Positions 748-26,609 of a DNA stretch of 26,609 nucleotides are shown piece after piece (the stretch's first letter is position 1; the number at the start of each line of letters is the position of its first letter). The notes below the pieces were generated by a model. It made no database searches. It saw nothing but the letters and a program-made list of their open reading frames with translations, and was not told the DNA's origin. The stretch lies in IMG/VR virus record IMGVR_UViG_2648501334_000005; one strand, written 5' to 3'. Both the position numbers and the translations under genes were made by a program. This DNA is from a virus. Lineage: Duplodnaviria > Heunggongvirae > Uroviricota > Caudoviricetes.

Positions 748-1441
748 CCGGGACTGCAGTGTCTCCCGGACGTCATCCAGAAGATGGCTGTAGGGGTTGC
801 CATCCACCTTATGGCTGCCGCTGTAAATCAGCGTGATTTCCACACCCTGTTTCTCCAGCGCAGCACCGTAATTACTGTGAGCCATCATGACGCCGATGGA
901 GCCTGTCCGGGCGGTCTGCGTGACCAGACGCCGGGAGGCAGCACTGGCAAGCAGCTGACCTGCACTGCAGTTCATGTCGTTGGCCAGCGCCCATACCGGT
1001 TTTATGTCACGCACACGGGCGATGATGTCAGCGCAGTCAAATGCTCCCGCCACCATTCCGCCTGGCGTGTCCATATCGAGCAGAATGCCGTCCACCATCG
1101 GATCGCTGGCAGCCTGTTGCAGACGGGCGATAATGCCGTTGTAACCGGTCATCCCCGAATACGGCTGCAGCGCCCGCGTCCGGCTGACCAGCGTGCCGGA
1201 CACCGGCAGCACGGCGATGCCGTTCATGACCTGATAACTGCGGGCCTGTCGTGGTCCGTCATCATCACCGGATAACGCCAGCGTCGCGGGTGCCTCTCCG
1301 GCAGTCAGACTGTCGCCGGATACCGCATCCGTCAGGCGGCTGATCCCAAGCTGGCCTGCAAGCGCACAAAAGAAAACCCGCGCATAGGCGGGTTCAAGCA
1401 TCAGCGGCTCATTAAAGGCCATACTGGCAATATGCGGGAGA

Positions 1442-1461
<20 letters not shown>
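142..1461 (-). CDS. C: Prohead protease / head maturation protein C (S49 ClpP-like), 439 aa
   Basis: Track ORF 142..1575. Translation from VTAELRNLPHIASMAFNEPLMLEPAYARVFF... matches lambda gpC nearly residue for residue. Start placed at GTG 1461..1459 by homology, overlapping the B stop as in lambda; the upstream 38 codons of the track ORF are treated as read-through artefact. Confidence 0.9.
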
Positions 1462-5142
<3,681 letters not shown>

Positions 5143-5880: not shown

Positions 5881-5948
5881 AGCCTGCCGGATCGCCGGAA
5901 AGGACCCGCAAAGGTGAGAATAATTATCACTTGCATTAATATCCGGCT

Positions 5949-6120
5949 TCTTCCACCATCGCACCGGACGGGCGACTATGAGGGACAAAAACCGCGCACC
6001 ATAAACGCGGTAAAAACCCGGTGTGCATCGTTTTTGATTATTCCCACACACTCGCGCAGAAGGAGTTCCCCGTCGGGCTACGGTCATGGTTAATGCGGGA
6101 ATACAGCGACGATACAGCGC
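5949..6120. repeat. Direct repeat copy A (~172 bp), left flank of the AT-rich cassette
   Basis: Aligns by eye with 7734-7904 at roughly 85-90% identity in the same orientation, with shared blocks such as GGTAAAAACCCGGTGTGCATCGTTTTTGATTATT and AGGAGTTCCCCGTCGGGCTACGGTCATGGTTAATGCGGGAATAC. Confidence 0.75.
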
Positions 6121-7671: not shown

Positions 7672-7694
7672 CAAAACCTCCTGACAAAGATACC

Positions 7695-7712
7695 GTGCGA
7701 CCACGGTCGCAC
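7695..7712. promoter_or_regulatory. sopC-like 18-bp palindrome GTGCGACCACGGTCGCAC, copy 1 (candidate SopB centromere site)
   Basis: Near-perfect inverted repeat with arms TGCGACC/GGTCGCA, differing in one arm position from the F sopC core TGGGACCACGGTCCCA as I recall it. Lies 24 bp upstream of the 286-aa gene start. Confidence 0.5.
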
Positions 7713-7733
7713 GCTCCTGAATACATGCCCTGT

Positions 7734-7904
7734 TTCTTCCACCCTCGCACAGGACTGGCGAGCATGAGGGACAAACCCGCGAATCATTAGCACGGTAAAA
7801 ACCCGGTGTGCATCGTTTTTGATTATTTCCGCACACTCGCGCATAGGAGTTCCCCGTCGGGCTACGGTCATGGTTAATGCGGGAATACGGCGACGATGCA
7901 GCGC
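7734..7904. repeat. Direct repeat copy B (~171 bp), right flank of the AT-rich cassette
   Basis: Partner of 5949-6120. Bracketed by palindrome copies 1 and 2. Confidence 0.75.
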
Positions 7905-7914
7905 GGAATTTAGC

Positions 7915-7932
7915 GTGCGACCACGGTCGCAC
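7915..7932. promoter_or_regulatory. sopC-like 18-bp palindrome GTGCGACCACGGTCGCAC, copy 2
   Basis: Identical to copy 1. Lies between repeat B and the DUF4406-like gene. Confidence 0.5.
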
Positions 7933-7951
7933 ACGAGAAACAAAGAGATTT

Positions 7952-8263
7952 TTATACTGCAGAGGAACAAGCTGGCGGGTAATTCAGCGTAGTGAATACC
8001 GGCATATCCATCTTGTATGCGTAATGATACTCAGCAGTTGCTCCAGCAGACGCTTTCCAGCCAGGAAGCATCAAAATAGCATCAGCACAACGAAGCATTG
8101 CAAAGCAAATATCCATGTATTCACGTTGCGTCAGACCATTAGGCAAAGTGGCTGGATTCAAGACAGAGTGACCATGTCGTGACAAACGATCTGCCTCTTT
8201 ATTAAAGGCGTCACGATTAAAGTTCTCATATCCCGTCATTGGCCCGGCAATATAAATTTTCAT
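7952..8263 (-). CDS. DUF4406-like (nucleoside 2-deoxyribosyltransferase-like) small protein, 103 aa
   Basis: Track ORF. N-terminal MKIYIAGPMTGYENFNRDAF motif is typical of the DUF4406 family common in prophages. Confidence 0.65.
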   Translation of the reverse strand: MKIYIAGPMTGYENFNRDAFNKEADRLSRHGHSVLNPATLPNGLTQREYMDICFAMLRCADAILMLPGWKASAGATAEYHYAYKMDMPVFTTLNYPPACSSAV

Positions 8264-8304
8264 TCACTATCCAACAAATTGAGCTCGTTTTTGATATAGA
8301 GGGA

Positions 8305-8742
8305 TTAATTCAGGCATTGCGTCTTGATGTATTCCTGCAAGTAGTTAACCTGCGCAGTTATCCTGTCGATCCCACTTCGGAGACGGTAATAATTGAGTTC
8401 AGCATCTGCTGTAAGTCTTGGGCTTTCTCCATTGCCCATGCCGCTGGCTCCGGTCGTTGACTTTGCACAGGTGGCGGCGACTTGCAGGCGCTTACGCCCA
8501 GCAGAAACATCAGCACGGAGGCTTTCGATAGTCGCGTTAGCATCAGCAAGCTCCTTTGTATATCTGGCATCGAGTTCTGCTACGTCACGTTGACGCTTCT
8601 GCATATCAGCGATTGTGGATGTGGCTTTATCACGCTGCTCTTTGTAGGCGATGGCGTTATCACGGTAATGATTAACAGCCCACGACAGGCAGATGATGAT
8701 GCAGATAACCAGACCGGAGATAATCGCGGTTACCCTGCTCAT
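8305..8742 (-). CDS. Rz: Rz i-spanin (inner-membrane spanin), 145 aa
   Basis: Track ORF 8305..8754. [39 protein letters not shown]... resembles lambda Rz (N-terminal TM helix, then coiled coil). Start placed at ATG 8742..8740, which overlaps the R stop as ATGA, like lambda. Confidence 0.85.
8358..8543 (-). CDS. Rz1: Rz1 o-spanin lipoprotein embedded in Rz in the +1 frame
   Basis: Track ORF 8358..8570 lies wholly inside Rz in another frame. Lipoprotein-like signal [10 protein letters not shown] followed by a proline-rich stretch [16 protein letters not shown]. Start is uncertain (Met at 8570 or at 8543). Confidence 0.6.
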
Positions 8743-9239
8743 TGTTGACCCCACAAACAGACTTCACGCTCAATCTCACGACGAGTCATCAGGCCTTTCC
8801 ATTGCTTACCGCCAGCAGATATCCAGCGACGTAGCTGATCACATGCGCCTTTGATATCGCCCTGGTTTATTTTGCGAAGAAGCGTCGATGTTCTGAAATT
8901 ACCAGCGCCCACGTTATAGACGAACGAATAAAGAGCGCCGCGCGTTGTTTCCGGTATATCGACTTTGATGTACGGGTTAATTTGTCTGGCGACAGTGGCA
9001 AGGTCTTTATTCAGGAGAGCTTTGCATTCTGCTTCGGTATACGTTTTACCTAGCATGATGTCTTTTCCAGTGTGTCCGTAACATACAGTCCATACACCAA
9101 CAATATCTTTGTATGGTATGTAACTGACACCTTCCAGACCATCGTTACCACTTGGGCCAGTGATGAGCATAGACGCTATGGCAATAGCCCCGCCACCAAT
9201 AGCAGCTGTGACAGCTTTGCGTAATGATGACTGCATCAT
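8739..9239 (-). CDS. R: SAR endolysin (T4-lysozyme family, GH24) with N-terminal signal-anchor-release domain, 166 aa
   Basis: Track ORF. Glycine/alanine-rich weakly hydrophobic N-terminus [20 protein letters not shown], followed by a catalytic region [25 protein letters not shown] with E/D/T spacing like phage 21 / P1 lysozymes. Confidence 0.9.
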
Positions 9240-9508
9240 ATTTCCTTCGGTGCTCTCTTCCCCAGCTCTCCAATAACCATCGCTGTAGCAGAAAGATTAT
9301 TGGTATTAGTTTTATCCAACATGTCCTGCAATATCTTCGTGCGCTTCATCTGCTCGCGTTTATTGAGCCGGTATGTAAGCACACCGAGGATAATGCTGAA
9401 CGCGACACCGATAATGAAGCCCCAATCCTGCAATGACAGGCTGGCAAAGAACGCAGCAAGACCAGCGCTACCATAAGATGCACTGCTGTATCGTTCATCC
9501 ATCTTCAT
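9236..9508 (-). CDS. S: Holin, class II pinholin-like (two TM domains), dual-start MKM motif, 90 aa
   Basis: Track ORF directly upstream of the SAR endolysin, with its stop overlapping the R start. Two hydrophobic segments ([32 protein letters not shown]) and a charged C-terminus. Architecture resembles phage 21 S21. Confidence 0.7.
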
Positions 9509-9603
9509 ATCTCTTACCTCGCAATAGTTGCTGAGGTTTCGGCTTGGAAACTATATGGCGAAAATAACCCCTACCAAAAACGGCAGGGGAATATATTCTC
9601 CAG

Positions 9604-10680
9604 TTACTCAAATAACTTTTTCACTTCATCAACTGTCTGAAGATAACGTTCGCCCTCAATCTCAATACCTATTGCCTGACGCCCTAACTTCAGCGCAGCT
9701 TTAATAGTTGAGCCTGATCCCATAAAGAAATCGGCAACGATATCTCCGGGGCGTGAACTACTCTTTATAATATGTTCCATCATCGCTGCAGGTTTTTCAC
9801 ATGGGTGCTTGCCAGGATAATATTGCACAGGAGGAAACTCCCATACATCGGTATAAGGTACATCAGCAGTAACATGAAATGGACGGCGTAAATTTTCATA
9901 CTGAGCCTTCAAATCATCATACTGCTTCTTTACTTCCTCATAATGCAATTTCAGATCGCTATAACGCTTTTCATGTTCTGAATAATCAACATTAAAAGGA
10001 TATGGACACGGGACACCGAGTGAATCTGCCTTCCTGCGAAATAATTCGCATAGTTTATTAAAATCAATTAATGATGGAAGCCGCCACTGCGAATAAGAAA
10101 ACCAGTGTGAACACATCTGCTTTCCTGTCGCTGAATTAATGTCTGCGGCTGATATATCTAACTGACGGCGAGCCAGCGAAAAAGCATCAATTAGTGGAGA
10201 AAAAATATTTTTTCTTAAATCTGCACATTTTGAAGCATAACCTGACTGACCTTTAGCATAACCTGACGCGCCGTAATGCTCTGCAAATAATATTCTTTCA
10301 GTAGCAGGAAAATAAGCCCTTAAACTTTCTTTATGACAACCGCGCCACATACCACTGGGTTTAGCCCAAATGATATGGTTCAGAACATTGAAACGGTCGC
10401 GAGTTAATAATTCAATTTTTGACGCAAGGCGAGAGCCGGTAAACATATACAGGCTGCCATTAGGGGCCAATATCCGCCAAAATTCTGCCAAAAATTCGTC
10501 AATCCACCCCAAAAAGTCAGCATCGCTATCCCACTGGTTATCCCATGCGTTAGCCTTTACGCCGAAGTATGGTGGGTCTGTTGCAATCAAATTGACCGAG
10601 TTATCAGGGATGGTTTTGATAAATTGCAGAGAATCTGCGCAAACGAGTTGTGCGCCATGAATATTAGTGGTTTTGAACAT
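9604..10680 (-). CDS. DNA methyltransferase (N6-adenine or N4-cytosine, beta-class motif order), probable orphan MTase, 358 aa
   Basis: Track ORF 9604..10725 trimmed to ATG 10680..10678 (MFKTTNIHGAQLVCADSL...). DPPY motif (IATDPPYFG) near the N-terminus and an AdoMet-binding FxGxG motif (DFFMGSGST) near the C-terminus. No adjacent restriction enzyme gene. Confidence 0.85.
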   Translation of the reverse strand: MFKTTNIHGAQLVCADSLQFIKTIPDNSVNLIATDPPYFGVKANAWDNQWDSDADFLGWIDEFLAEFWRILAPNGSLYMFTGSRLASKIELLTRDRFNVLNHIIWAKPSGMWRGCHKESLRAYFPATERILFAEHYGASGYAKGQSGYASKCADLRKNIFSPLIDAFSLARRQLDISAADINSATGKQMCSHWFSYSQWRLPSLIDFNKLCELFRRKADSLGVPCPYPFNVDYSEHEKRYSDLKLHYEEVKKQYDDLKAQYENLRRPFHVTADVPYTDVWEFPPVQYYPGKHPCEKPAAMMEHIIKSSSRPGDIVADFFMGSGSTIKAALKLGRQAIGIEIEGERYLQTVDEVKKLFE

Positions 10681-10815
10681 AGCTATTATTTTTTTGCCTG
10701 GGTAAGCTAACCCGGCGATGCGCATCGCGGGTGGGCTTTAGGTTCAGCCTATAGCTCTGGCATGGGTTGACCGCAGGACAAGCTGCAACTTGTCCTGCGC
10801 CCACTTTTCAGGCAC

Positions 10816-10838
10816 AAAAAAACCGCCATAAAGGCGGC
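10816..10838 (-). terminator. Intrinsic terminator, tR'-like, upstream of the methyltransferase and lysis genes
   Basis: Minus strand reads AAGCCGCCTTTATGGCGGTTTTTTT: a GC stem, 5-nt loop and 7-U tract. Confidence 0.5.
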
Positions 10839-10924
10839 TTGTTGGCTGTTGGGTACAAAAAACCCAACTTAACAAAACAATAACTAAAAACCGTCATTTT
10901 GCCAAGCTTTTTCGTTTTTGTGCT

Positions 10925-10942
10925 GTGCGACCGTGGTCGCAC
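10925..10942. promoter_or_regulatory. sopC-like 18-bp palindrome GTGCGACCGTGGTCGCAC, copy 3
   Basis: Same arms as copies 1 and 2 with the centre inverted. Lies in the intergenic region between the 75-aa ORF and the tR'-like terminator. Confidence 0.5.
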
Positions 10943-10947
10943 AGCTT

Positions 10948-11175
10948 TTAGAAAGTTGCCTGCTTATATTCATCGGTCAAAGAATATCGACCAGATCCGC
11001 TACGCTTTGCAACCCCAAAACAAATCATCTGTTCGATGATAAATTCAACGGCAGCTTGACTCAAAAAACAGGCTTCGCTTAACTCTTTCAGGGAAATGCG
11101 TGGGTATCCACGCATAACACATTCCACACTCAGGGCCGCTTCAGTCATATTTCCACGAATTTCATTAATATTCAT
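10948..11175 (-). CDS. Hypothetical protein, 75 aa
   Basis: Track ORF in an operon-like array. No family recognised. Confidence 0.4.
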   Translation of the reverse strand: MNINEIRGNMTEAALSVECVMRGYPRISLKELSEACFLSQAAVEFIIEQMICFGVAKRSGSGRYSLTDEYKQATF

Positions 11176-11188
11176 AACGCCTCTCTAA

Positions 11189-11428
11189 TCAATCTTGAAA
11201 CTGGAAATCAACATCAGCCATAAAGCGGTTCAACTCAGCCAGTTTTGGCCCCATAGTCCCAACTAAGCGACCAGCCAGTCGGTCTGTTAGGTTGGTACTG
11301 TTGAAACCATATTCCTTTTCGAAACGTTCAACCTTCTGCCACAACTCATACAGTTCGTTAGCTATCTCCGCAACGTCGTCGCGCATTTTTTCGTTACCTT
11401 GATAATTCATAATATCCTCCAAATTCAT
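11189..11428 (-). CDS. Hypothetical protein, 79 aa
   Basis: Track ORF. No family recognised. Confidence 0.4.
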   Translation of the reverse strand: MNLEDIMNYQGNEKMRDDVAEIANELYELWQKVERFEKEYGFNSTNLTDRLAGRLVGTMGPKLAELNRFMADVDFQFQD

Positions 11429-11575
11429 ATAGTTAGTGGGTTATTGCCCCTCAATGACACGAACTGTAACTCTGCCAAACGAACACATCCAGTGTTATTT
11501 TTCGCTTTTTAGTGAAATTTTTAATTTGCGCTGTTTTCTTGTTTTGGTGTATTTTATGGATATGGAGGCTATAAT

Positions 11576-11887
11576 ATGTTTAACGTGATAACCCACCCTG
11601 CAGCACTGGATGAACTGCTTGAACTACCAGATGATCTGCGAGGTCGCATGACCAGATTAATTGAGCGACTGGAGAAAGAAGGCAACAAACTGAAGATGCC
11701 CCATAGCCGTGTAATAGGTGGAGGGCTTTTTGAACTACGAGTAGGGGATAAAAACATCGCAAGAACGCTGTACGCCTACGCGACTGGTAACGAAATTTAT
11801 CTATTGCATGCATTTGTAAAAAAGACACAGAAAACACCGGTGAAGGCTATCGAAATCGCCAGAACTCGCCTGAAGGAGATGAACTGA
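11576..11887 (+). CDS. Type II toxin, RelE/ParE superfamily (HigB-like / Gp49-like), 103 aa
   Basis: Track ORF. C-terminal LFELRVGDKNIARTLYAYATGNEIYLLHAFVKKTQKTPVKAIEIARTRLKE matches the Gp49/HigB-like consensus. GGAGG Shine-Dalgarno before the ATG. Stop overlaps the next ATG (TGATG). Confidence 0.75.
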   Translation: MFNVITHPAALDELLELPDDLRGRMTRLIERLEKEGNKLKMPHSRVIGGGLFELRVGDKNIARTLYAYATGNEIYLLHAFVKKTQKTPVKAIEIARTRLKEMN

Positions 11888-12174
11888 TGAAAGCGAAAGG
11901 CATCCCGTTTAACGAAGTAAAAGAAAAACTCCTCAACACTCCAGAAGCCGTCAAAGGATATGAAGAGGCCGACAAAGAGCTGGAGATGGTCGAAATGTTA
12001 TACGAAATGAGGGAAAGAGCAGGTTTAACGAAATCAGCTCTGGCTGAACGAATGGGGTTGCGACCGTCAGCCATCAGCCGCCTGGAAAGCAATCCTTTAG
12101 GGGCAAGTATGAAAACTTTGGCTAAATATGCTCATGCCTGCGGCGCAACCATCGATATTCGCGCTGTTTATTAA
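11887..12174 (+). CDS. HTH XRE-family antitoxin (HigA-like), 95 aa
   Basis: Track ORF. Helix-turn-helix segment LTKSALAERMGLRPSAISRLESN. Translationally coupled downstream of the toxin, in the toxin-first order typical of HigBA. Confidence 0.75.
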   Translation: MKAKGIPFNEVKEKLLNTPEAVKGYEEADKELEMVEMLYEMRERAGLTKSALAERMGLRPSAISRLESNPLGASMKTLAKYAHACGATIDIRAVY

Positions 12175-12216
12175 TTAGACTCTTTTACTACCCCGTCCAG
12201 AAGGGCGGGGTGTGCA

Positions 12217-12420
12217 TCAATGATGTGAACGCTCAACAGCGATAGTTTTCTGACAATGCTGGGCAATCTCTCGCGACATGTTGATGAGTCGTGAAACCTC
12301 ACCAATATGTAGGCTGGCTTCTGGAGAAGCCAGGGTGACGCTAACCAGATCCAGAACGGCGTCAATATCTCTTAAATTTGAATCGAGTTGTTCAAGAGTT
12401 GATACGGCTGCTTCAGACAT
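12217..12420 (-). CDS. Hypothetical protein, 67 aa
   Basis: Track ORF. No family recognised. Confidence 0.35.
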   Translation of the reverse strand: MSEAAVSTLEQLDSNLRDIDAVLDLVSVTLASPEASLHIGEVSRLINMSREIAQHCQKTIAVERSHH

Positions 12421-12502
12421 TAAATCTCATACCATTTAACTAAAAAAGGTTATTTATACTGTATAAAATTACAGGGTAAAACTCAAACTTTACGGTCAAT
12501 TT

Positions 12503-12745
12503 TCAATGAATTAACTGCGTAAACTGCTGTGTGGCCCGATACTTATGCTCTCTCCCTATGCCACGATCAACTTTCTCAAGAAGTCCAGTACGGACAGCAG
12601 AATCAAGCATCCTTTTAACAATTCTGCTATTTAACCCAACATCAAAAGCAAGCATCGAAGCGAAAACAAACCCATCACCACCATCAGAAAAGCTCTTTTC
12701 GCTCCGTTTTCGTATCATTTCAAAAAGCAATGCCTTTTTATCCAT
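12503..12745 (-). CDS. Hypothetical protein, 80 aa, possible winged-helix DNA-binding fold
   Basis: Track ORF. No family recognised. Confidence 0.4.
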   Translation of the reverse strand: MDKKALLFEMIRKRSEKSFSDGGDGFVFASMLAFDVGLNSRIVKRMLDSAVRTGLLEKVDRGIGREHKYRATQQFTQLIH

Positions 12746-12763
12746 TTATCCCTCCGTGACCAG

Positions 12764-13090
12764 TCACGCTTTGAGTGCAAGTTTCAGCCTCGTGGTTGTA
12801 AGGTGGCATGACCCTTCGCCATCAAAAATGCATTCTGAAACAGGCATTTTTTGACCACATCGCGGGCAAGTAGTAGATAGCTGCTTCTGCAGCTCCTTAT
12901 AGTTTTTCCTGATCAGCAAACCAATGACTTCGTTCTCCGAATATGGAACTCGCCCTGGTCTACGCAATACACAAATTTCCCCCAACATACGTAACTCGTC
13001 AGGTTCTAGAATCCAGTCCCGTCTTGATGTGCCTTCCTTCTTCAATCGTTCCCTGCGTCTCCTTTGCCGTTCTGCCGGTGTCAGCGCCAT
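12764..13090 (-). CDS. Hypothetical protein, 108 aa, arginine-rich N-terminus and a CPRCG zinc-ribbon-like motif
   Basis: Track ORF. No family recognised. Confidence 0.4.
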   Translation of the reverse strand: MALTPAERQRRRRERLKKEGTSRRDWILEPDELRMLGEICVLRRPGRVPYSENEVIGLLIRKNYKELQKQLSTTCPRCGQKMPVSECIFDGEGSCHLTTTRLKLALKA

Positions 13091-13105
13091 AAATCCTCCT
13101 GAAAA

Positions 13106-13855
13106 TTACTTAACCCAATTAACTACACCGCCAGCGGCCACAACCGCCCTTTCACAGTCACGCTCATATCTCAAAGGTTGAAATACACCATCAATAAAAT
13201 ATTTATCTCCACCAAACGCTGCAGGAAGTGAAACAGAAAACTGAATATAACCATCCGGAGTTACCGGAGAGTTGCCAGCCAGTCTACGCAACACAGCCTT
13301 AACCGCCTCAATACGGTCATCATCGCAATTTTCCAGCGTATCTATGCGATCGAGCATGATGATGGCGTTATCAATATCAGGATTGCCGGTCCACTCATTA
13401 CCGCGATTGGATTCGGCAGCCTGGTTGCCGTGTACTGTTTGATTCTCGGCTTTACCCAGTCTGTCGTCGCTGCATGAATGCCCTTCCAGCCAGGCCAATG
13501 CTTGTCGCATGAAATACGCAATATGTTTGCCGTGGTAATCGTCTTCATCGATGTGAAAAGCGATACTGCGGATGTATTCAATTGCGTTTTCAATGGCCTC
13601 CGGCGTTATCGGCGCTGGCGGCGCAGCGAATAGATATCCGCCAAAATCAGGAAGCTCTCCAATGGCCTGTACGAACTTTTGTTTGCCTACGTCAATTCCT
13701 AATGGGTAGTGAGCTATAATCTTTGCCACTGGCTCTGCTTCCAGCGAGGCTAACGCTATTTCATAAGCCCGGCGCTCAATATTGTCTCGCACGTCCAGGC
13801 TGCCTATACGCTCTTTGATTTCTTTAATCAGTTCTTTGTCGGTAAAAGTAGTCAT
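13106..13855 (-). CDS. Hypothetical protein, 249 aa
   Basis: Track ORF, long and uninterrupted. No family recognised. Confidence 0.5.
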   Translation of the reverse strand: MTTFTDKELIKEIKERIGSLDVRDNIERRAYEIALASLEAEPVAKIIAHYPLGIDVGKQKFVQAIGELPDFGGYLFAAPPAPITPEAIENAIEYIRSIAFHIDEDDYHGKHIAYFMRQALAWLEGHSCSDDRLGKAENQTVHGNQAAESNRGNEWTGNPDIDNAIIMLDRIDTLENCDDDRIEAVKAVLRRLAGNSPVTPDGYIQFSVSLPAAFGGDKYFIDGVFQPLRYERDCERAVVAAGGVVNWVK

Positions 13856-13858
13856 GTG

Positions 13859-14146
13859 TTAGTCCTCATCCACTTCAACGCCATCTTTCAGCGTGATGCC
13901 GTGCCAATCATCAGCCCAACTGGTTAGCCCTGGCGCATCAATGCTAGGCATATAGACGCTTGCAGTGTGGTAGCCCTTATCGTTATCAATGCTGGCAACG
14001 TGCTCACCGTTGTATGCGCTCAGCGTGTCCAGGACGCTATAAAACTTTCCTCCGGCTGCCCTGAAATCCTTTACAGCCTTCACAAGGCGATTCCACGCTT
14101 TTTCCTGTTCCGGCGTCAGGTCGACTAATTCCTGCAAAGTTGCCAT
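13859..14146 (-). CDS. Hypothetical small acidic protein, 95 aa
   Basis: Track ORF, tightly packed with its neighbours. No family recognised. Confidence 0.45.
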   Translation of the reverse strand: MATLQELVDLTPEQEKAWNRLVKAVKDFRAAGGKFYSVLDTLSAYNGEHVASIDNDKGYHTASVYMPSIDAPGLTSWADDWHGITLKDGVEVDED

Positions 14147-14147
14147 A

Positions 14148-14660
14148 TCACTCTCCTTTGATGCGAATGCCAGCGGCGCGGATTGCAGCGATGACTTCAG
14201 AAACTTTGTATGCCATTACCGTTTGGTAATCATCGTGAAAATCTGTTCGATGAAGCATGCTGCTACGTTCCGGGAGCAGTATTTCCCGCTCCTCCAGTTC
14301 TGCTACGCGCTGTTTTGCAGCATCCAGCTCAATCGACAATTTTTCCAACTGCTCTTTATGCTTCTTGTATTCCTGATATGCGTGCCAAGACTGACCTTTG
14401 CGCACACTATCAGTGATATCAGTAATCTGTTCTGGTGTTAGCGTGGTCAGTGGCTGTGATGGGAAAATAAGCACTTTACCGGAATCCCAATCAAAACCAG
14501 CGTGAATTGACTGAACCTCAACTGAAGGTGTTGAACCAATGCTGCCAGGCGAATGAACAACGATTGTTACATCCATATCGCGACGATGGCTGTGGTTGTT
14601 GGACAAAATACGATTCAACAAAATACGATTCACCAACTCAGAAAATTTAGAAAATTTCAT
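14148..14660 (-). CDS. Hypothetical protein, 170 aa (start may instead be the internal Met at about 14576)
   Basis: Track ORF. The 5' part contains a tandem 15-bp repeat. No family recognised. Confidence 0.45.
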   Translation of the reverse strand: MKFSKFSELVNRILLNRILSNNHSHRRDMDVTIVVHSPGSIGSTPSVEVQSIHAGFDWDSGKVLIFPSQPLTTLTPEQITDITDSVRKGQSWHAYQEYKKHKEQLEKLSIELDAAKQRVAELEEREILLPERSSMLHRTDFHDDYQTVMAYKVSEVIAAIRAAGIRIKGE

Positions 14661-14947
14661 GCTGATTCACCTTTCTCTGCTCTCTCCTGTCGGAACATCA
14701 CTATCATCAGGTCGCCTTTTGTCGCTATCCTGGCTGTTGTGCCTGGCTCAATGCGGCTAAGTTCAAATGCGCCATAGAACGCCTCCAACGCTTTCTGGCG
14801 TAGTTCCTGTTTGCGCCGTTTTTTCCACTGTTTTAGGAAAATGGAACCCAGCCATCGCCATGTACGGGACATGATGTAAAGCCAACCGAGAAGTGCCAGA
14901 CCGGTATTTAGGGCCGTATCGATCGTTATCGTGGTGTCGATATTCAC
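14657..14947 (-). CDS. Hypothetical small membrane protein, 96 aa
   Basis: Track ORF. One hydrophobic helix (LNTGLALLGWLYIMS) then a basic region. Start overlaps the upstream stop; stop overlaps the next start. Confidence 0.4.
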   Translation of the reverse strand: MNIDTTITIDTALNTGLALLGWLYIMSRTWRWLGSIFLKQWKKRRKQELRQKALEAFYGAFELSRIEPGTTARIATKGDLMIVMFRQERAEKGESA

Positions 14948-15366
14948 TACGCCACCTCCTGAAAATTTCCCTGATAAAAAGCCAGCACACGCTGCATAAC
15001 TTCACTTTTCCGGCAATCGTGACAAATCATGTTCAAGCGCCTGTCGTAACGACGTATTTCTCCGTCAGGTAATGACCAGATAAGGTCTGGATCAACCACT
15101 ACCGATTTCTTCGGCTTTACTCTTGATAGCTTTTTGCGGGCGTTTTGCCAGTCCTTGCGCGCTTGTGCAGACAGAAATATCCCGGAGCCAGAGATATACA
15201 AATCACCACTGGCAGCAAGCTCTCTTGATAAACGACTAACAGCACACCGGCTAATACCAGTTTCATCCGCAAGTTGCCTAACAGTTCCTCGTCCATTCAG
15301 GCGCACGAGTTCCACAATTTGTTTATTCAGTTCTTCTCTCTGTTCTGGTGTAAAAGCCTTTGCCAT
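14947..15366 (-). CDS. Hypothetical HTH-containing protein, 139 aa
   Basis: Track ORF. HTH-like segment VRQLADETGISRCAVSRLSRELAASG. Coupled to the exonuclease gene. Confidence 0.5.
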   Translation of the reverse strand: MAKAFTPEQREELNKQIVELVRLNGRGTVRQLADETGISRCAVSRLSRELAASGDLYISGSGIFLSAQARKDWQNARKKLSRVKPKKSVVVDPDLIWSLPDGEIRRYDRRLNMICHDCRKSEVMQRVLAFYQGNFQEVA

Positions 15367-15965
15367 TACGATTCTCCTTGCCCTTTTACAAGACGGGAGA
15401 AAATTGCGGATACATATTTAGCCTGATGAATAGCATCAGCCAGGGCATTGTGTCGTTCGCCATCAAATGGCATATCTTTTTTAGGATTAAAACCAATAAA
15501 CTGACCAAGATTAACGATTGTTCGAACATCCTGATCATTAAAATATTCCCACGGACAGGCTAAGCCAACGCGCTCATAAGCACCGCGTAAAATAACATTA
15601 TCGAAAGTTGCTCCATTTCCCCATACTTTCAATTTTTTTAAATTACATGCATGGCAAGTAATAAAGTGTGATAATTCAAAAAGTGCATCCTTAATATCAA
15701 GGGCATCATTAGTACAAATTGCGGCTCTGGCTTCCTTGCTCTGTTTCAACCACCATAAAATGGTATCACCATCGGCGACACCACCATTCAACATAGAGCT
15801 TCTGAGATTCACTGGCACATAAAAAGTAGGACCTAATTCCTCACTTTCTGGAGAAAAAAACACTGCCCCGATAGAAACAATTGGAGCACATGTGTTAGTA
15901 CCCATTGTTTCAAGGTCAATCATTACATCAGACCGTTTCCTGTCGTAAATAATCTGATTAGTCAC
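15366..15965 (-). CDS. DEDDh-type (DnaQ-like) 3'-5' exonuclease, 199 aa
   Basis: Track ORF. Exo I motif MIDLETMG and Exo III motif HNALADA are present. Confidence 0.75.
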   Translation of the reverse strand: MTNQIIYDRKRSDVMIDLETMGTNTCAPIVSIGAVFFSPESEELGPTFYVPVNLRSSMLNGGVADGDTILWWLKQSKEARAAICTNDALDIKDALFELSHFITCHACNLKKLKVWGNGATFDNVILRGAYERVGLACPWEYFNDQDVRTIVNLGQFIGFNPKKDMPFDGERHNALADAIHQAKYVSAIFSRLVKGQGES

Positions 15966-15988
15966 GAATAATTCTCCTCAACGTTTAT

Positions 15989-16192
15989 CTATACCCAAAT
16001 TTTCTGTTGATATGTTCTGGATGGTTTTGGCGTTCTTTCTGATTCAGGTAAATGAACATAAACGCAATATCCATCACCTAAAAAATCAGAACGAACAACC
16101 AGAACTTTCTTACCACGCCGCCGATAAGTATCTGAAAGACGCTCTGCTTCATCATGCGTCATCGGCCCCTGCTTAAATGGCGTTATTTTCAT
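15989..16192 (-). CDS. Hypothetical protein, 67 aa
   Basis: Track ORF 15989..16216 trimmed to ATG 16192..16190 (MKITPFKQGPMTHDEAERL...). The track's upstream extension is the palindrome itself. Confidence 0.4.
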   Translation of the reverse strand: MKITPFKQGPMTHDEAERLSDTYRRRGKKVLVVRSDFLGDGYCVYVHLPESERTPKPSRTYQQKIWV

Positions 16193-16493
16193 TTTCTTGT
16201 GCGACCACGGTCGCACCCTCTCTGATTTCCAAGTAACGCTTAATCCAAAGATTTTCTATATGCTTATTACCTGGCTGATTTGATAAATACCAATCGGCAA
16301 TTACAGACTGCTTATTACTATCTGGCCGTGTCCTGTAACCACAAGTTGGACACCAGATAACATATTCATTTCTTACCCCCGAATACCTTAATTCTGGCTT
16401 CGACGGTTTCCTGAACATAACTTGTTTACAAAGGCAGAATGGCACTTCCTGCCCGATGGCGTTTGATGATTTCACTGCGCTTCTCCGCCGCAT
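16173..16493 (-). CDS. Zinc-ribbon protein, possibly Lar-family restriction alleviation protein (start uncertain)
   Basis: Track ORF. YVIWCPTCGYRTRPDSNKQSVIADW resembles the Lar-family pattern of CxxC followed by an AIxAW motif. The 3' end encodes ATVVAQ across palindrome copy 4. Confidence 0.35.
   Translation of the reverse strand: MRRRSAVKSSNAIGQEVPFCLCKQVMFRKPSKPELRYSGVRNEYVIWCPTCGYRTRPDSNKQSVIADWYLSNQPGNKHIENLWIKRYLEIREGATVVAQENENNAI
16199..16216. promoter_or_regulatory. sopC-like 18-bp palindrome GTGCGACCACGGTCGCAC, copy 4
   Basis: Identical to copies 1 and 2. Lies in the 3' end of the Lar-like ORF, just upstream of the next gene start. Confidence 0.5.
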
Positions 16494-17136
16494 TTAATAA
16501 TGCAGTTCGATTTAAGCTCAGACATCGCGACTTAATTAAAAGCCAGCGTTCTTTATAATCTTGTCTCCAGCTATCAATAGATATATTCAGTAGAAAACTC
16601 AGATGCCTGTCCTGTTCTCTCTCATCAACTGCCTCAGCACACGTAAGTTCTGATTTAACCTGTTGTGCCGCGTAATAAATCAATTTCCGCATGGCTTTTT
16701 TCGTGGAGGCCTTCATTTTTTTAAAGCCCCCCCCCGAATGAGCAACCAGAAAATCAAGCCATAACCACTGACAAACAATCACATCATTGTTGTAATCAGG
16801 CTTGCATCCGTAGCAATAATAAAGCCAGGCTGATTCCTCGTTATTCAACTGACCAATAGCCCTGCGCCAGCTGGCGCTCTGAAAATCAATATCAGTGAGC
16901 AACATTGATGATTGTTTAAATGTTTTCCCCTGGTGGAATCTAACCGGCTCAGCAGGAACGGACACTTCGTATGAGTTATCATCCCCCACACTGATTGACC
17001 GGACTGGTTTATTGTTAAACCGTCCTGATCTACCGAGACGCATCTGCTCAAGCTGGACCTCCAGAATGCCACGCTGGCGATAATGAACATCGGCCAATGC
17101 CGTAGAGACGCAGCTGCGTATATACTCAAGCTCCAC
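16426..17136 (-). CDS. Putative late-gene antiterminator Q-like protein (assigned by position directly downstream of cro; family not confirmed), 236 aa
   Basis: Track ORF overlapping the cro-like stop. Cysteine cluster YYCYGCKP...C. In N15 the immB region is organised cB-cro-Q. Sequence is not lambda-Q-like. Confidence 0.35.
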   Translation of the reverse strand: MELEYIRSCVSTALADVHYRQRGILEVQLEQMRLGRSGRFNNKPVRSISVGDDNSYEVSVPAEPVRFHQGKTFKQSSMLLTDIDFQSASWRRAIGQLNNEESAWLYYCYGCKPDYNNDVIVCQWLWLDFLVAHSGGGFKKMKASTKKAMRKLIYYAAQQVKSELTCAEAVDEREQDRHLSFLLNISIDSWRQDYKERWLLIKSRCLSLNRTALLNAAEKRSEIIKRHRAGSAILPL

Positions 17137-17347
17137 GCTTACGACTCTCCTTAATCGACTGCTTTACCCGCCGAGTTGTAAAGTCACTCTTCAGCTTATA
17201 AGCAGTACGAACTTCAATATCGCTTTGCCGCAATGAAGGAATCTCTCCAGCGGTTAACCATTGGTAAACAGCTCCGGGTGTTACACCTACCCCTGCTGCT
17301 GCTTTTTCTACACTGCCAAAGTGGCGAATAAGTTCTTCTGGTTTCAT
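17126..17347 (-). CDS. cro: Cro-like HTH regulator (YdaS-type), 73 aa
   Basis: Track ORF 17126..17374 trimmed to ATG 17347..17345 (MKPEELIRHFGSVEKAAAGVGVTPGAVYQWLTAGEIP...). Divergent from the cB-like gene, with operators in between. Confidence 0.65.
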   Translation of the reverse strand: MKPEELIRHFGSVEKAAAGVGVTPGAVYQWLTAGEIPSLRQSDIEVRTAYKLKSDFTTRRVKQSIKESRKRGA

Positions 17348-17374
17348 GTTGTTATTATAAACAATAAACAACAA

Positions 17375-17416
17375 TTAAAGCCAGCTATAATAAATAAATT
17401 TTATAGCCAGCTATAA
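17375..17416. promoter_or_regulatory. Two 16-bp palindromic operators (O1 TTAAAGCCAGCTATAA at 17375-17390; O2 TTATAGCCAGCTATAA at 17401-17416) in the cro/cB divergent promoter region
   Basis: Half-sites TTATAGC/GCTATAA with a 2-bp centre, repeated 26 bp apart between the divergent cro-like and cB-like starts. Confidence 0.5.
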
Positions 17417-17438
17417 GAAGATCATTTATGATTACAGT

Positions 17439-18035
17439 ATGAAAACACGAGGCGAACGACTGAAAGCACGCCGTTTAGAGATGAAGCTGACGTTGCGAGA
17501 AGTTGCTGAGGCTGTCGATATCTCTATAGCAGGCGTCCAAAACTTAGAACGTGGCGACGTAATGCCGTCACTGGAGATAGGTATTGCCCTGGCTAAGTGC
17601 TTACGCAAGCCAGTGCATTGGGTGCTATATGGGACAGAATATGACCCTGATCGCATTCCTGTTATTGGCACAACTGAAAGTGGGCCGGATGAAGAGTGGA
17701 AGCCGGGACAGGTTCCAAATACTGAGCGATTCCTGCCATTCATCAGCCAGCGCAATACTGTGTATGCGTTAACTATCAGCAATCTTACGCAGGGAAACTA
17801 TCAGCCAGGCGATTTTCTCCTGGTCGATTCTGCGCTGGAACTGGTCCCCGGCGAGGATGTTCTGGTTCGTGATACTGCAGGAAATATCACTATCCAGCGC
17901 CTGGCCCGTTTTGATGATGAAAATTACTATCTGGATGGAACAAACTCACAACGCGCCATCTTCAGGAAAAGCGATCTTGAATTTGTTCACCAAATAGTCG
18001 GAACGATCAAATCATTCATGGTTGAGGGTAGATGA
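17439..18035 (+). CDS. cB: Prophage repressor CB/CI-like (N-terminal HTH XRE domain, C-terminal S24 LexA-like domain), 198 aa
   Basis: Track ORF. N-terminal HTH LTLREVAEAVDISIAGVQNLERG. C-terminal domain with lambda-CI-like segments PGDFLLVD...GEDVLVRD. Divergent from cro. Confidence 0.8.
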   Translation: MKTRGERLKARRLEMKLTLREVAEAVDISIAGVQNLERGDVMPSLEIGIALAKCLRKPVHWVLYGTEYDPDRIPVIGTTESGPDEEWKPGQVPNTERFLPFISQRNTVYALTISNLTQGNYQPGDFLLVDSALELVPGEDVLVRDTAGNITIQRLARFDDENYYLDGTNSQRAIFRKSDLEFVHQIVGTIKSFMVEGR

Positions 18036-18124
18036 CTTAATACGGGGTTTATTGTTTGCTGTAAATCTGGTTTAATGCAGGGCATATGTTCTGTGGGTTG
18101 ACTCAGGTTACAGCAGCAGAAAAA

Positions 18125-18164
18125 AGACGAAAAAAAACCCGAGTCGGCAAACTCGGGTCCTTTT
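18125..18164. terminator. Bidirectional intrinsic terminator downstream of the cB-like gene
   Basis: CCCGAGTCGGCAAACTCGGG hairpin flanked by an A-run on the 5' side and TCCTTTTC on the 3' side. Confidence 0.5.
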
Positions 18165-18280
18165 CAGGAAGCAGCCACAGTAACGCGACGGATTCCGTCA
18201 ATTCAAGATGCGTTTATTGTGGCTGCTCCTGCGGATTTTTTCAACCCGAAAAAACATAATTCGCATGGAATGGCTAAAAA

Positions 18281-21200
18281 ATGACATTAAACGATTTCTA
18301 TGCGGATCGCTTTGGCAGCGATCCGTTCTCGCTAATTGAAGCAGCACGGGATGAACTAACCGAGCTGGCACAGATGGCTGGTATCAACTGGCCTGCCTGT
18401 TCCGACAACATCCAACTCAACCCTCGCGGGGGGGTTGAGCGTTACTCTTCATACAATAAAACATCTCCAGAAGCTCTCGAAAAGAGCCTGAAAGGACGCG
18501 TAGAAATTTACTCCAGGCTGGAACACAGCAAAGGGATTGATTACCCGTTCATTAACTTCGTCCATAAAGGCAGCGATGCTGGCTCATGGAGCGGTTTCTC
18601 CTTCCTGTTTTCTGAATATCGCCGTGAGCAACAACGGAATAATGCGACCGTGGTCGCACAACCGGAAGAAGAACGGGAAAGAATAGAACGTCAGGCCGAA
18701 GCACGTCGTCGCCGTGAAGAACAAAAACGAATTAATGACCTGAAAAACAACCAAATGGACCATGAACGTTTGCTGGGATGGCTGGCATTCCACAGCGCGT
18801 GGGAACATGCTCCGGCTGAAGACGGCTCATGGCCATATGCGATTAAAAAAGGTATTCGTGACGTTTTTAGTTCATGTGATGTGCGTCGCGTGACCAGTCA
18901 CGACAGTGCGAAATGGAGCCGGGGGCCAACCACATATATGGCTATCCCTCTGGCTCACCTGGACGGTCGTTATGATGGTCGTATTGTGGGTTGGCAGCGA
19001 ATCGACAAACAAGGTGGGAAATACCAGACCAGCGCAGTAACCAGCGGCGATTTCGTCGGTGCCTGCTTTGTTATCGGTGAGCTGAAAGGGGCGCAAAACA
19101 TCGCTGTTACAGAAGGTTTTGCTACTGGTGCATCCATCTGGCTTGCCACGAAAAAAGATAAACGCTTTGACGCTGTGGTTGTCGCTGTATCCGCTAACAA
19201 CATGGTTCATGTTGTGGAACAACTGGTAAACATGTACCCGGCGGCAAAAATCACCTGCGCACTGGATAATGACCGGAAATCTGCCACAGAAGGAAAAGGG
19301 AATACAGGCCTGCGGACTGGCTATGAAATCTTATCGAAATTCAACGATGTCCGCTGCGTCTATCCAACTTTTGAAGACGATCCGCAAATGGAGTGCAGTG
19401 ACTTCAACGACCTGCACAAACTACGTGGACTTCGTGAAACAGCACGTCAACTATTTGCAACAGCAAACCGCCTGAAAACCGGTACTGATTTGCTATCTCT
19501 GACGCTCAACCGCCTGAAGACAATTAAGCGGGATAACCGTCGTACTTTTGCCAAAGAGCTGCTGAGAGCGGTGGATATTGGCATGCTAACCTGTCCGGTT
19601 CCTAACAGTCCGTCAGATTTATTTAACATGTTCTGCATCGTTCTGCGTGAAATGGGACTGGAAAATATCTATCGCGCTACGGTAAAAGACCACATTGCCC
19701 GTCGCCTGAATAAAAAGTGCCGTATTGCCCAGGCTCCGCGCTCTTTCAGCGAACGCATAACTGATCCCAATAAACGCCCTCAACATATCACCTATAAGCG
19801 TTTTGAAACTTCGGTAATGACCGATGATGTCCTGAAGTACGTGCAATCACTACAGGGGATAGTCATCGTCCGTGCTGGTATGGGTTCCGGCAAATCTACT
19901 GGATTGTTACGACCGTTAATGCATAGCTCAGAACGTGGTATCTCTGTTGCTCACCGTGTCTCCCTTATTGGTGGCCTGTGGGAAATGATGACAGAAGGAA
20001 AAGGTGTAAAAGCCGATATCCTGCACTATCAGGATCCTGGCTATCAGGAAATGGCTCCATACGCCAGTAAACTGACCATCTGCATAAACTCGATTGTTAA
20101 AAACTGCTGGCAACCGTTGATGCGCCAGCACGACTATTTTGGCTTTGACGAGGCCACACAAGGGCTACGTGCCGTTCTTTCCGGTCGGGCTATGGAAAAC
20201 CCGGTGGCTGTATTCAATACGCTAATTGACGCGCTGGCCAGAACGGAACAACACCCAATCATGGTAGATGCTGATGCGAACGATCTGCTGGTTGACCTGG
20301 CTGAACTGGCTATGAAACGCCGTGAAGAACTAGGTTTACCGGCATGGCTGCAGATCCACGTAATTGAATTACCTGTTGATGTTCGCAACCGCGAAACAGG
20401 TGAGCCAATCCGGGTTTTTTATACAGAAAAAGATCGCATCATGACCGAGGTGGTGAAAGCTGTATCGGATGGCGAAAAAATCATGTTGGCCACCGACAGC
20501 TCCACCTTTGCAGAAGATGTGACAGCCACCCTGAGAATGCATTTTCCTGGTAAGAAATTTCTGTGTGTAAACCAGAAAAACAAACCAGAGCCAGAAGTTG
20601 AAGCATTTACCAATCAACCGAAAAAGATGGTCAAAAAATACGACGGCCTGATTTATAGCCCGTCTATTTCATCCGGCGTGTCGATTGAGCAAAAACATTT
20701 TGACCGTCATTTCGGCATGTTCTGTGGTGAAGTTGTACCCAGCGACGCAGTGCAAATGCTACGCCGCGACCGTACAGCAAAAGAATTTATTATCGGCTTT
20801 GATAAAGCTCGTGCAAAACGTGAAACTGACCCGCAAAAAATAGAACGAGCATTCGCCCAGGCATTGCTTGCTACCGCAGGTATGAACGGTGAACTGACGG
20901 ATGTCGTTTTCGATGGCGACCGTATATCAATGGGGGTGGCCAATACCGACTTTACCAGGATGAAAATTAAAGCAGCCGCAATTGAAGCGACTGCGCGTAA
21001 CGACTACGCCAGCAACATGATCTGCATCATGCACAGCGACGGTTATAAGGTATCGCCGCTGGCCACCGATTATGCTGCGAATGATATCGGTAAAGATCTG
21101 CGTAAAGAAGCGCGGGATATTGTGTGGGAACAGACACTGGATCTGCACCTCAATACAGAAACTCCACAAGAATCAGAGCGTGAAGAACTGCTAAAAAAAC

Positions 21201-22276
21201 GCGCGCTGACGCTTGAAGAACAGGCAAAACTTGTCCGCTGGGATATTGAAAACGAACTGAAACTACCGGTTGAAGAAGGCACGCTAAAATTCTATTTCGA
21301 TGGTGCTCGAGACAAAGTTCGCCGCTATGAAACAATGCTTTTAGATGAGGTAACAGCTCGTCGTTACGACCGGGAAGAAGCAGCCATCAATTTTACCTAC
21401 GCATACCGTCAGGCGGGACAGTGGCAATATTTTGTAGTGACCGCGATGACTCGCGAGCAGGCTGATGATGTCTTTAAAACTAAATTCCCTGGAATAATCG
21501 ATCACAAGGTAAAAGCTACTCCTACTGTTGAAGTCGGGGCGCGCGGTTTCTATGCGCTTAAATCAGCAACTCTCCGGCAGTACTTTATCGACTGCGGTAT
21601 CAACCCTGAGACTATGACCGGCGAGGCGACTCAGGAGCGTCTCAAATTCGCTCGAGATAACCTCATGACAGCCGAACGCCGTGACCTGTTGAATAACGTT
21701 CTGCACATTGGTGGTTTTATGACGCCAAAAGGGAAGCCTAAAGTGCCGGAAGCGTTGTTTAAAAACATTTGCGACTCTCTTGGCCTTAAAACAGGTAAAC
21801 GTCGCGGCAGAGACGGCGATAAGCGTCCAACCTTGCGTTTTGTTGAGCCTGAATCAGCGGCATTTATGCTGGATATTCTTGTTCAGCGTCAGAAAGATGG
21901 CCTAACACTAAAAACGCGTAAAGCCGAGAAGACAGCCATCGAAATGGATCGCGATTTGGATCTCAATATATATATGGATGATAAAACGCGATCCACAAAC
22001 GAGCAGGTTCAAAACGCCCCTCATTCAGTAATTTCTGAGGCTTTGGCCGTGTTGCCAGTGGCTGTACCTGAGTCCTGGGCGATGAGTGCGCTTTCCAGTG
22101 AGGAGTTGGCCACTATGTCATCATGGTCATCAGCCAGCATAGCTATGACGTTTGCATCCCTGTACCTCACAGAGTTCATGGATCACCTTTCCAGCAATGA
22201 GCTGCGGCGGTTACGTGAATACATTACGGGGAATAGCTCATGCAGCTACGAAGAGCAGGGTGCTTTCTATGGGTAA
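18281..22276 (+). CDS. repA: Replication protein RepA, multidomain primase (TOPRIM) - helicase, 1331 aa
   Basis: Track ORF. TOPRIM-like motifs NIAVTEGFATGASI and CALDNDRKS, Walker A GMGSGKST and Walker B-like FGFDEAT. Size and position next to cB match N15 RepA (about 1324 aa as I recall). Confidence 0.9.
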   Translation: MTLNDFYADRFGSDPFSLIEAARDELTELAQMAGINWPACSDNIQLNPRGGVERYSSYNKTSPEALEKSLKGRVEIYSRLEHSKGIDYPFINFVHKGSDAGSWSGFSFLFSEYRREQQRNNATVVAQPEEERERIERQAEARRRREEQKRINDLKNNQMDHERLLGWLAFHSAWEHAPAEDGSWPYAIKKGIRDVFSSCDVRRVTSHDSAKWSRGPTTYMAIPLAHLDGRYDGRIVGWQRIDKQGGKYQTSAVTSGDFVGACFVIGELKGAQNIAVTEGFATGASIWLATKKDKRFDAVVVAVSANNMVHVVEQLVNMYPAAKITCALDNDRKSATEGKGNTGLRTGYEILSKFNDVRCVYPTFEDDPQMECSDFNDLHKLRGLRETARQLFATANRLKTGTDLLSLTLNRLKTIKRDNRRTFAKELLRAVDIGMLTCPVPNSPSDLFNMFCIVLREMGLENIYRATVKDHIARRLNKKCRIAQAPRSFSERITDPNKRPQHITYKRFETSVMTDDVLKYVQSLQGIVIVRAGMGSGKSTGLLRPLMHSSERGISVAHRVSLIGGLWEMMTEGKGVKADILHYQDPGYQEMAPYASKLTICINSIVKNCWQPLMRQHDYFGFDEATQGLRAVLSGRAMENPVAVFNTLIDALARTEQHPIMVDADANDLLVDLAELAMKRREELGLPAWLQIHVIELPVDVRNRETGEPIRVFYTEKDRIMTEVVKAVSDGEKIMLATDSSTFAEDVTATLRMHFPGKKFLCVNQKNKPEPEVEAFTNQPKKMVKKYDGLIYSPSISSGVSIEQKHFDRHFGMFCGEVVPSDAVQMLRRDRTAKEFIIGFDKARAKRETDPQKIERAFAQALLATAGMNGELTDVVFDGDRISMGVANTDFTRMKIKAAAIEATARNDYASNMICIMHSDGYKVSPLATDYAANDIGKDLRKEARDIVWEQTLDLHLNTETPQESEREELLKKRALTLEEQAKLVRWDIENELKLPVEEGTLKFYFDGARDKVRRYETMLLDEVTARRYDREEAAINFTYAYRQAGQWQYFVVTAMTREQADDVFKTKFPGIIDHKVKATPTVEVGARGFYALKSATLRQYFIDCGINPETMTGEATQERLKFARDNLMTAERRDLLNNVLHIGGFMTPKGKPKVPEALFKNICDSLGLKTGKRRGRDGDKRPTLRFVEPESAAFMLDILVQRQKDGLTLKTRKAEKTAIEMDRDLDLNIYMDDKTRSTNEQVQNAPHSVISEALAVLPVAVPESWAMSALSSEELATMSSWSSASIAMTFASLYLTEFMDHLSSNELRRLREYITGNSSCSYEEQGAFYG
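18642..18659. promoter_or_regulatory. sopC-like palindrome ATGCGACCGTGGTCGCAC, copy 5 (17/18), inside repA coding sequence
   Basis: Same TGCGACC/GGTCGCA arms. Encodes ATVVAQ in RepA. Confidence 0.45.
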
Positions 22277-23504: not shown

Positions 23505-23644
23505 TGGCCTTTGATTAACGATCAACTTCTGATCACTCGTTCAAGCAAACTATAAAAACACCTGTCCCCGTGACTGGTCACGGGGTAAAATGTCTTTGCA
23601 AATTATTGACGTGCGCGTCGTTTTGACGGTAAAGTTTACTCCGC

Positions 23645-23717
23645 TACGGTAAATCCCGTAGCCGGGCGTAGGAACCCGAGTAAATGAAGCGCACAACACG
23701 CGCCAGCGTGTTTTTTT
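23645..23717 (+). ncRNA. Candidate c4-like antisense/regulatory small RNA of an immI-like anti-immunity locus
   Basis: Possible promoters with TTGACG -35 boxes at 23606-23611 and 23623-23628. Hairpin GCTACGG-TAAATC-CCGTAGC. Intrinsic terminator at 23696-23717 (ACACGC-GCCA-GCGTGT followed by T7). GTAGGAA motif (23668-23674) is complementary to TTCCTAC (23801-23807) in the icd leader. Boundaries are approximate. Confidence 0.3.
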
Positions 23718-23880
23718 GTGTGTAAAATCTGCGTACACCAAATTTATGGTGGCTCAGATGGGGCAGCTTTTAGCTGGCCGGTTTCTTCGTTTACCGGTAT
23801 TCCTACCCCCGTCTGGGCTACCGCCATATAGAGCGTAGGAACTCTGGTGGTAGCACGACCAATTAAACGGAGTGCATACC

Positions 23881-26383: not shown

Positions 26384-26539
26384 CTTTCCTCTCCTGATTA
26401 TCCGCTCGGATTATCGTAACACAATTTGAGAATAAGATAACTAATAACGCGTTAACTTAGTCACAAACTAACAGAACACAATAACGGATAATAAACAAAA
26501 ACACAATATCGGAACGTTAAAATCTGTTCCTTGATTTTG

Positions 26540-26609
26540 TTCTAAAGATCAGCACATAATCCCCCATTATACGCGCGTATAATGGGGGATTATGTGCTGA
26601 TCTTTAGAA
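26540..26609. other. telRL: Telomere resolution site (telRL / tos core): perfect 70-bp palindrome centred on ACGCGCGT
   Basis: 26540-26609 is a perfect inverted repeat, checked base by base, with centre between 26574 and 26575. Core CCATTATACGCGCGTATAATGG matches the N15 telO palindrome as I recall it. It reaches the final base of the window. Confidence 0.9.

Follow-up and report, generated by a model that had tools for sequence, protein, structure and literature searches.

Why would one viral genome carry five copies of the same 18-bp palindrome at widely separated positions? The question is raised by IMG/VR record IMGVR_UViG_2648501334_000005, a stretch of 26,609 nucleotides of Caudoviricetes DNA (analysed over its whole length and referred to below as the window). 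A reading made from the sequence alone (the sequence-only reading) had noticed the five palindromes, four exact and one matching at 17 of 18 positions, and had proposed that they are scattered SopB centromere sites of the kind used by phage N15. Our analysis upholds that proposal and we consider it very probable that a linear plasmid-prophage uses the five palindromes as the centromere (parS-like) sites of its N15-type SopABC partition system, since there are far more copies than expected, the 18-mer is identical to the N15 sites IR1–IR4 that have been used experimentally as a centromere, the same 18-mer is annotated as a partitioning site in phage phiKO2, the flanks are syntenic with N15 and phiKO2, the DNA is constrained at synonymous positions of repA and in the palindrome arms, the closest relatives encode SopA and SopB, and nearly all the IMG/VR stretches with the motif, among the matches listed, are homologous to N15-like references.

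We searched the window for the pattern GTGCGACCNNGGTCGCAC, allowing up to two mismatches, and used dinucleotide-preserving shuffles as background. Exactly five matches to GTGCGACC-NN-GGTCGCAC were found, the same five that had been listed from the sequence alone (Table 1; each site is named below by its first position), and loosening the pattern to three mismatches gave no extra site in the window. The copies at 7695, 7915 and 16199 all read GTGCGACCACGGTCGCAC. The copy at 10925 reads GTGCGACCGTGGTCGCAC, which is GTGCGACCACGGTCGCAC on the opposite strand (AC and GT centres are equivalent by strand), and the copy at 18642 reads ATGCGACCGTGGTCGCAC (ATGCGACC...), with one mismatch. The shuffles contained 0.01 matches on average and five were reached in 0 of 100, in agreement with the earlier statement that the copy number is far above chance. 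The sites are single and dispersed, with start-to-start distances of 220, 3010, 5274 and 2443 bp between successive sites, and the window contains no tandem array beside sopB.

The window aligns over almost its full length, in reverse orientation, with the linear E. coli plasmid pCAVP367-48 (NZ_CP145143.1; 98.5–99.2% identity), and it aligns with N15 at about 72–77% identity in the terminase-portal, methylase-lysis, Q-cB-repA and protelomerase regions; by these alignments it can be assigned to the N15-like linear plasmid-prophages of Escherichia (E. coli). The N15 genome contains the same 18-mer four times, at 33479 (inside repA, with one mismatch), 35930 (after Q), 41124 (20 bp before the annotated late-promoter -35) and 45561 (after gene 58). 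The centromere sites IR1–IR4 of N15, together with the N15 SopA/SopB proteins, were reportedly described by Ravin and Lane in 1999. Lane's group joined oligonucleotides containing the four N15 sites and their flanks (IR1–IR4) into an "N15 centromere" (PMC7205306, Table 4), and N15 SopB forms normal foci on the joined array; F SopB is non-functional with the N15 sites, and N15 SopB is also able to use F sopC (PMC7205306). We note that IR1 reads GAGCGACCACGGTCGCAC in the N15 RefSeq record (L002 33479–33496) and GTGCGACC... in the oligonucleotide of PMC7205306 Table 4, with the same flanks; either the oligonucleotide was idealised or there is a real sequence difference. The GenBank record of phiKO2 (NC_005857.1) annotates four "putative plasmid partitioning sites", all of which are the same 18-mer (three exact, and the one in repA with one mismatch).

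The window and N15 have in common the identical 18-mer, its dispersed and non-tandem arrangement, the places it occupies (the repA gene, the 3' side of Q, the upstream side of the late promoter and the last intergenic regions ahead of cos), and a linear prophage replicon with protelomerase and RepA. They differ in the number of sites (five in the window, four in N15, with the fourth position doubled around a 190-bp segment that is absent from N15 when the two sequences are compared), in being only moderately similar in the common regions (the 72–77% given above), and in the central dinucleotides (AC/GT in the window; AC, TC, AT and AC in N15). The phiKO2 genome has the 18-mer at four places that are syntenic with those of the window, and one copy comes straight after a DUF4406-type gene as at 7915 in the window, but there is a single site at the fourth position instead of two, and the phiKO2 sites are annotated as putative only. 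With F the element shares a homologous SopB family (judged from its relatives) and a 16-bp inverted repeat architecture with the same ACC-NN-GGT centre. The F sopC core is TGGGACCACGGTCCCA (PMC3597684), just as it had been given in the sequence-only reading, and each arm of the window core TGCGACC-NN-GGTCGCA is indeed one base away from it (G in F, C here); F has tandem 43-bp repeats beside sopB, whereas the window has single sites spread across 11 kb of early and late regulatory DNA, far from sopAB. What the first description had missed is that, beyond a mere resemblance to F sopC, this is essentially the characterised N15 system.

The positions of the sites are conserved along with their sequence. 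The site at 18642 does lie inside repA, as had been noted, where it occupies homologous codons in the three elements (NATVVAQ in the window, GATVVAQ in N15 and HATVVAQ in phiKO2). The site at 16199 lies 3' of Q in a conserved context (...aaatcaGAGAGG-site-...ATG). The gene start at 16192, to which attention had already been drawn, is a minus-strand ATG 6 bp downstream of this site, and it opens a conserved open reading frame (ORF) of 67 amino acids (aa); its translations from the window, N15 and phiKO2 show clear homology that begins at the N-terminus (MK.TPFKQGPM...QQKIW.). The N15 and phiKO2 RefSeq records annotate no coding sequence at this place, pCAVP367-48 annotates a shorter 57-aa version, and the ORF has no Pfam match. 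The IR2-type palindrome might control this ORF via SopB binding or an mRNA hairpin.

We surveyed the conservation of the sites across relatives, using in part loci that were fetched because they contain the exact motif. For the repA-internal site the relatives are unselected on that copy, because one-mismatch forms escape the exact fetch pattern. Among 15 unique relatives, 5 of the 6 third-codon positions within this site never vary, and in the 60-bp flanks this is true of 4 of 40 (Fisher p=5e-4); when only the window, N15 and phiKO2 are used, the counts are 5 of 6 and 10 of 40 (p=0.01). The near-invariance of the site at synonymous positions of repA shows that the constraint is on the DNA itself, independent of coding. 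At 16199 the arms are invariant and the central dinucleotide is variable (20 unique relatives), at 10925 the mean conservation is 0.996 versus about 0.78 in the flanks (27 unique relatives, a sample partly selected on the motif), and the 7695 site is intact in 8 of the 8 unique relatives carrying it. Taking the relatives together, the arms do not vary, and the centre reads AC, GT, AT, GC or GA; fixed arms with a free centre are the pattern expected of a dimeric helix-turn-helix site.

The sopAB genes had been said to lie outside the window, and tblastn found no SopA or SopB homologue encoded in it (best E 0.54). In pCAVP367-48, sopA and a ParB/SopB gene are found at the opposite end of the linear molecule. 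The SopB of this plasmid is 73% identical to N15 SopB, contains the SoPB_HTH Pfam domain, and matches structures of the F SopB DNA-binding domain (3mky, E=1e-38). Out of the 12 plasmids best matching the window, 11 encode this SopB at 84–100% identity, and in ten of them sopA is annotated beside it.

A GC-rich palindrome present in several copies may also bring to mind a host-wide repeat such as the REP-like elements, or a cluster of restriction-modification targets unrelated to partition (the element encodes a site-specific DNA methyltransferase), and both of these had been named in the sequence-only reading as outcomes that would speak against partition. Among the matches listed, the distribution of the 18-mer argues against a motif that is generally repeated in hosts. 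Of the 120 IMG/VR stretches listed as containing the exact motif, 117 are homologous over 500 bp or more to the window, pCAVP367-48, N15 or phiKO2. In a species-level genome collection, 118 out of 120 matches listed are single matches in unrelated genomes (mean 66% GC), about the number expected by chance for 16 fixed bases in 596 Gb, and only two of the matches listed are enterobacterial, both of them homologous to N15-like references. In addition, restriction-modification targets are far shorter than 18 bp. We give this explanation practically no weight.

By homology with N15 and F, and from what is known of type Ia ParABS systems, the five sites would work as follows. SopB, whose gene would lie beyond the window at the far end of the replicon, would bind each 16–18-bp inverted repeat as a dimer via its helix-turn-helix domains, and each SopB-bound site would nucleate a larger SopB-DNA partition complex. 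The complexes would then stimulate the nucleoid-bound SopA ATPase, with the prophage copies being separated before cell division. SopB binding and partition activity are what we infer for this element from its relatives. In the N15 literature, single sites are reported to stabilise test plasmids, and several sites to help the linear form.

Table 1. Palindromic sites and other features of the window referred to in the text.
Feature	Position	Strand	Remarks
Palindrome inside repA, N15 IR1 homologue	18642..18659		Aligned with N15 33479-33496 and phiKO2 37905-37922
Palindrome between Q and the next gene, N15 IR2 homologue	16199..16216		Flanks match N15 35930-35947 and phiKO2 40345-40362
Palindrome before the late promoter, N15 IR3 homologue	10925..10942		Three-way alignment with N15 41124-41141 and phiKO2 45384-45401
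Palindrome, upstream member of the doubled fourth site	7915..7932		20 bp after DUF4406 gene; positional match to phiKO2 site 4
Palindrome, downstream member of the doubled fourth site	7695..7712		286-aa gene starts 23 bp downstream; extra fifth copy compared with N15
Putative late promoter TTGGCA-17-TATTGT	10877..10905	-	Aligned with annotated N15 and phiKO2 promoter
Predicted terminator after the late promoter	10840->10820	-	tR'-like target of Q antitermination
Conserved 67-aa ORF	15989..16192	-	Homologues L002 (N15) 35954-36157 and L243 (phiKO2) 40369-40572
190-bp segment, copy A	7718..7904	-	Between the two close palindromes
190-bp segment, copy B	5932..6120	-	Just upstream of cos/terminase region (terS); without palindrome in the window
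repA	18281-22276	+	1331 aa; IR1-type site 361 nt from start
Q	16426-17136	-	
Protelomerase gene	24482-26383	-	
Site-specific DNA methyltransferase	9604-10725	-	
Telomere palindrome, perfect 35+35 (70 bp)	26540-26609		Exactly at the window end

Some observations weigh against assigning all five palindromes to partition. The conservation survey is biased for 4 of the 5 sites (these loci were fetched because the motif was present); sopA and sopB lie outside the window, and their presence on the source replicon is predicted from the relatives; and the 7695 copy has the pattern of a terminator as well and may have another role, in addition to partition or in its place. On the minus strand it scores as terminator-like, with an 8-bp stem and then GTATCTTTGT, and the N15 record annotates 45560–45584, which contains IR4, as a putative terminator stem-loop. 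One may ask, then, whether the palindromes are simply rho-independent terminator hairpins. The terminator scan did not call the other four copies, which lack a T-run, and one of the copies lies inside the repA coding sequence. Terminators conserve structure over sequence, and one would not expect them to show the same 18-mer five times; moreover, the arms exactly match SopB sites that have been used experimentally. As an account of the set, terminators are highly improbable, and partition centromeres remain our preferred reading. An RNA gene at 7690–7940 on the minus strand was also considered and rejected, since the low fold energy there (z=-2.96) arises from the two palindromes pairing with each other. 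No Rfam family overlaps any of the five sites or the interval between the paired sites.

The surroundings of the 10925 site bear on a second possible function. This site precedes the late promoter by 19 bp, and a conserved terminator follows the promoter, so the earlier placement of this palindrome between the accessory block and a tR'-like terminator was accurate. In N15 the late promoter is annotated with its -35 at 41162–41167 and its -10 at 41185–41190, and homologous terminator stem-loops are annotated at 41229–41250 in N15 and at 45489–45510 in phiKO2. By this homology, the site, the promoter and the terminator would make up the Q-dependent late control region. The control region of Q and the late promoter is bracketed by the two palindromes at 16199 and 10925, and in N15 the Sop system reportedly facilitates late gene expression (according to the title of a 2008 paper by Ravin, Rech and Lane); because of these two points, the two sites probably have a regulatory role in addition to partition.

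It could further be argued that the palindromes are mainly regulatory sites for lytic development, at which SopB would bridge or silence DNA at Q, the late promoter and repA, with partition being secondary. The sites certainly have regulatory-looking positions (ahead of the late-promoter -35, in the gap separating Q from the following ORF, within repA, and shortly before a gene start), and such positions are conserved in N15 and phiKO2; the late-expression report for N15 fits as well. However, the N15 IR sites are established centromeres (PMC7205306), and regulation would add to partition rather than substitute for it. Besides, the doubled near-cos site and the turnover seen in relatives suggest that site number outweighs exact regulatory placement. 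We therefore regard a mainly regulatory function as unlikely, though worth keeping in mind, and treat regulation as a possible addition to the centromere function.

The sites at 7915 and 7695 are 220 bp apart and enclose a 190-bp lambda-type segment. Judged from the comparison with N15 and phiKO2, this pair is a lineage-specific doubling of the fourth N15 site, which had escaped the sequence-only reading. The segment also occurs, with 85–95% identity, in lambda-like phage records such as 434, mEp460 and 2B8, where a few hundred bp separate it from the right end. Its two copies in the window form a direct repeat and are about 90% identical, giving the arrangement site-segment-site-geneX-geneY-segment. 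Copy B carries a terminator-like hairpin (6011->5991, minus strand).

The number of sites between the DUF4406 gene and cos varies among relatives from one to three. Many of the relative loci have one site after the DUF4406 gene, and in some of them the stretch may be too short to reach a second one; L209 has three sites (1755–3776), L226 three (1328–3232) and L189 two (4275–4512). In L209 the second segment copy is also followed by an exact site in the same register (...cagggcatgtattcaggagc-site), and the repeated unit would therefore be the segment plus the site. The third site of L226 is located just before the cos region. The DUF4406-adjacent copy has one or two mismatches in several relatives, an arm position included: it is altered to TTGCGACC... 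in L001 (one mismatch) and to GTGCGATCGTGGTCGCTC in L209, and has one mismatch in L189. The segment-linked copy is intact in all relatives surveyed. From these sequences, it looks as if redundant sites have been gained at the fourth position and the older, DUF4406-adjacent one is decaying.

The N15 picture would be extended if the number of centromere sites is turning over in this E. coli lineage, through duplication of the segment-plus-site unit and decay of the older site, and if the 220-bp pair or the cos-proximal sites do something specific; control of the 67-aa ORF by the IR2-type palindrome would be a further extension. We put this forward as a long shot. If it were true, the close pair or the cos-proximal sites could strengthen the partition complex close to where the late operon ends, insulate the enclosed segment, or link SopB to packaging or late transcription.

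Other parts of the window are in keeping with a plasmid-prophage. The repA counterpart in the relative L001 is annotated as a CyRepA1-family plasmid replication protein, and repressor, cro, lysis and terminase genes are also found in the window. An intact telRL running toward sopA is one possible reading of 26524–26609, but the perfect 35+35 palindrome stops exactly at the window end and such records can carry hairpin read-through, so telRL may or may not be intact here. The 'circular' record of one relative, NZ_CP126957.1 (L244 9779–13988), contains two inverted copies of the protelomerase gene around the telomere point, which looks like assembly read-through of a hairpin telomere. In the early accessory block, 13325–14292 (~970 bp) has no counterpart in pCAVP367-48, which has a different 904 bp instead; by this alignment it is a mosaic replacement relative to that plasmid. 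Two Rfam families match above their gathering scores on the plus strand, isrK at 23643–23716 (62.5 bits) and C4 antisense RNA at 23742–23828 (73.6 bits), both in the anti-repressor / icd region adjoining the protelomerase gene.

The main value of these results is for annotation: in N15-like E. coli plasmid-prophages, which are common in clinical and animal isolates, the label that these five sites should carry is that of SopB centromere sites, and one of the five is currently at risk of being labelled as a terminator. For partition biology there is nothing conceptually new, as the IR1–IR4 / SopABC system of N15 is already known and the only departure from the N15 set is the extra fifth site. 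The scientific interest is low unless the turnover of site number is functionally meaningful; in that respect the variable number of sites in this lineage amounts to a small experiment of nature, in which the number of dispersed centromere sites required by a linear replicon is put to the test.

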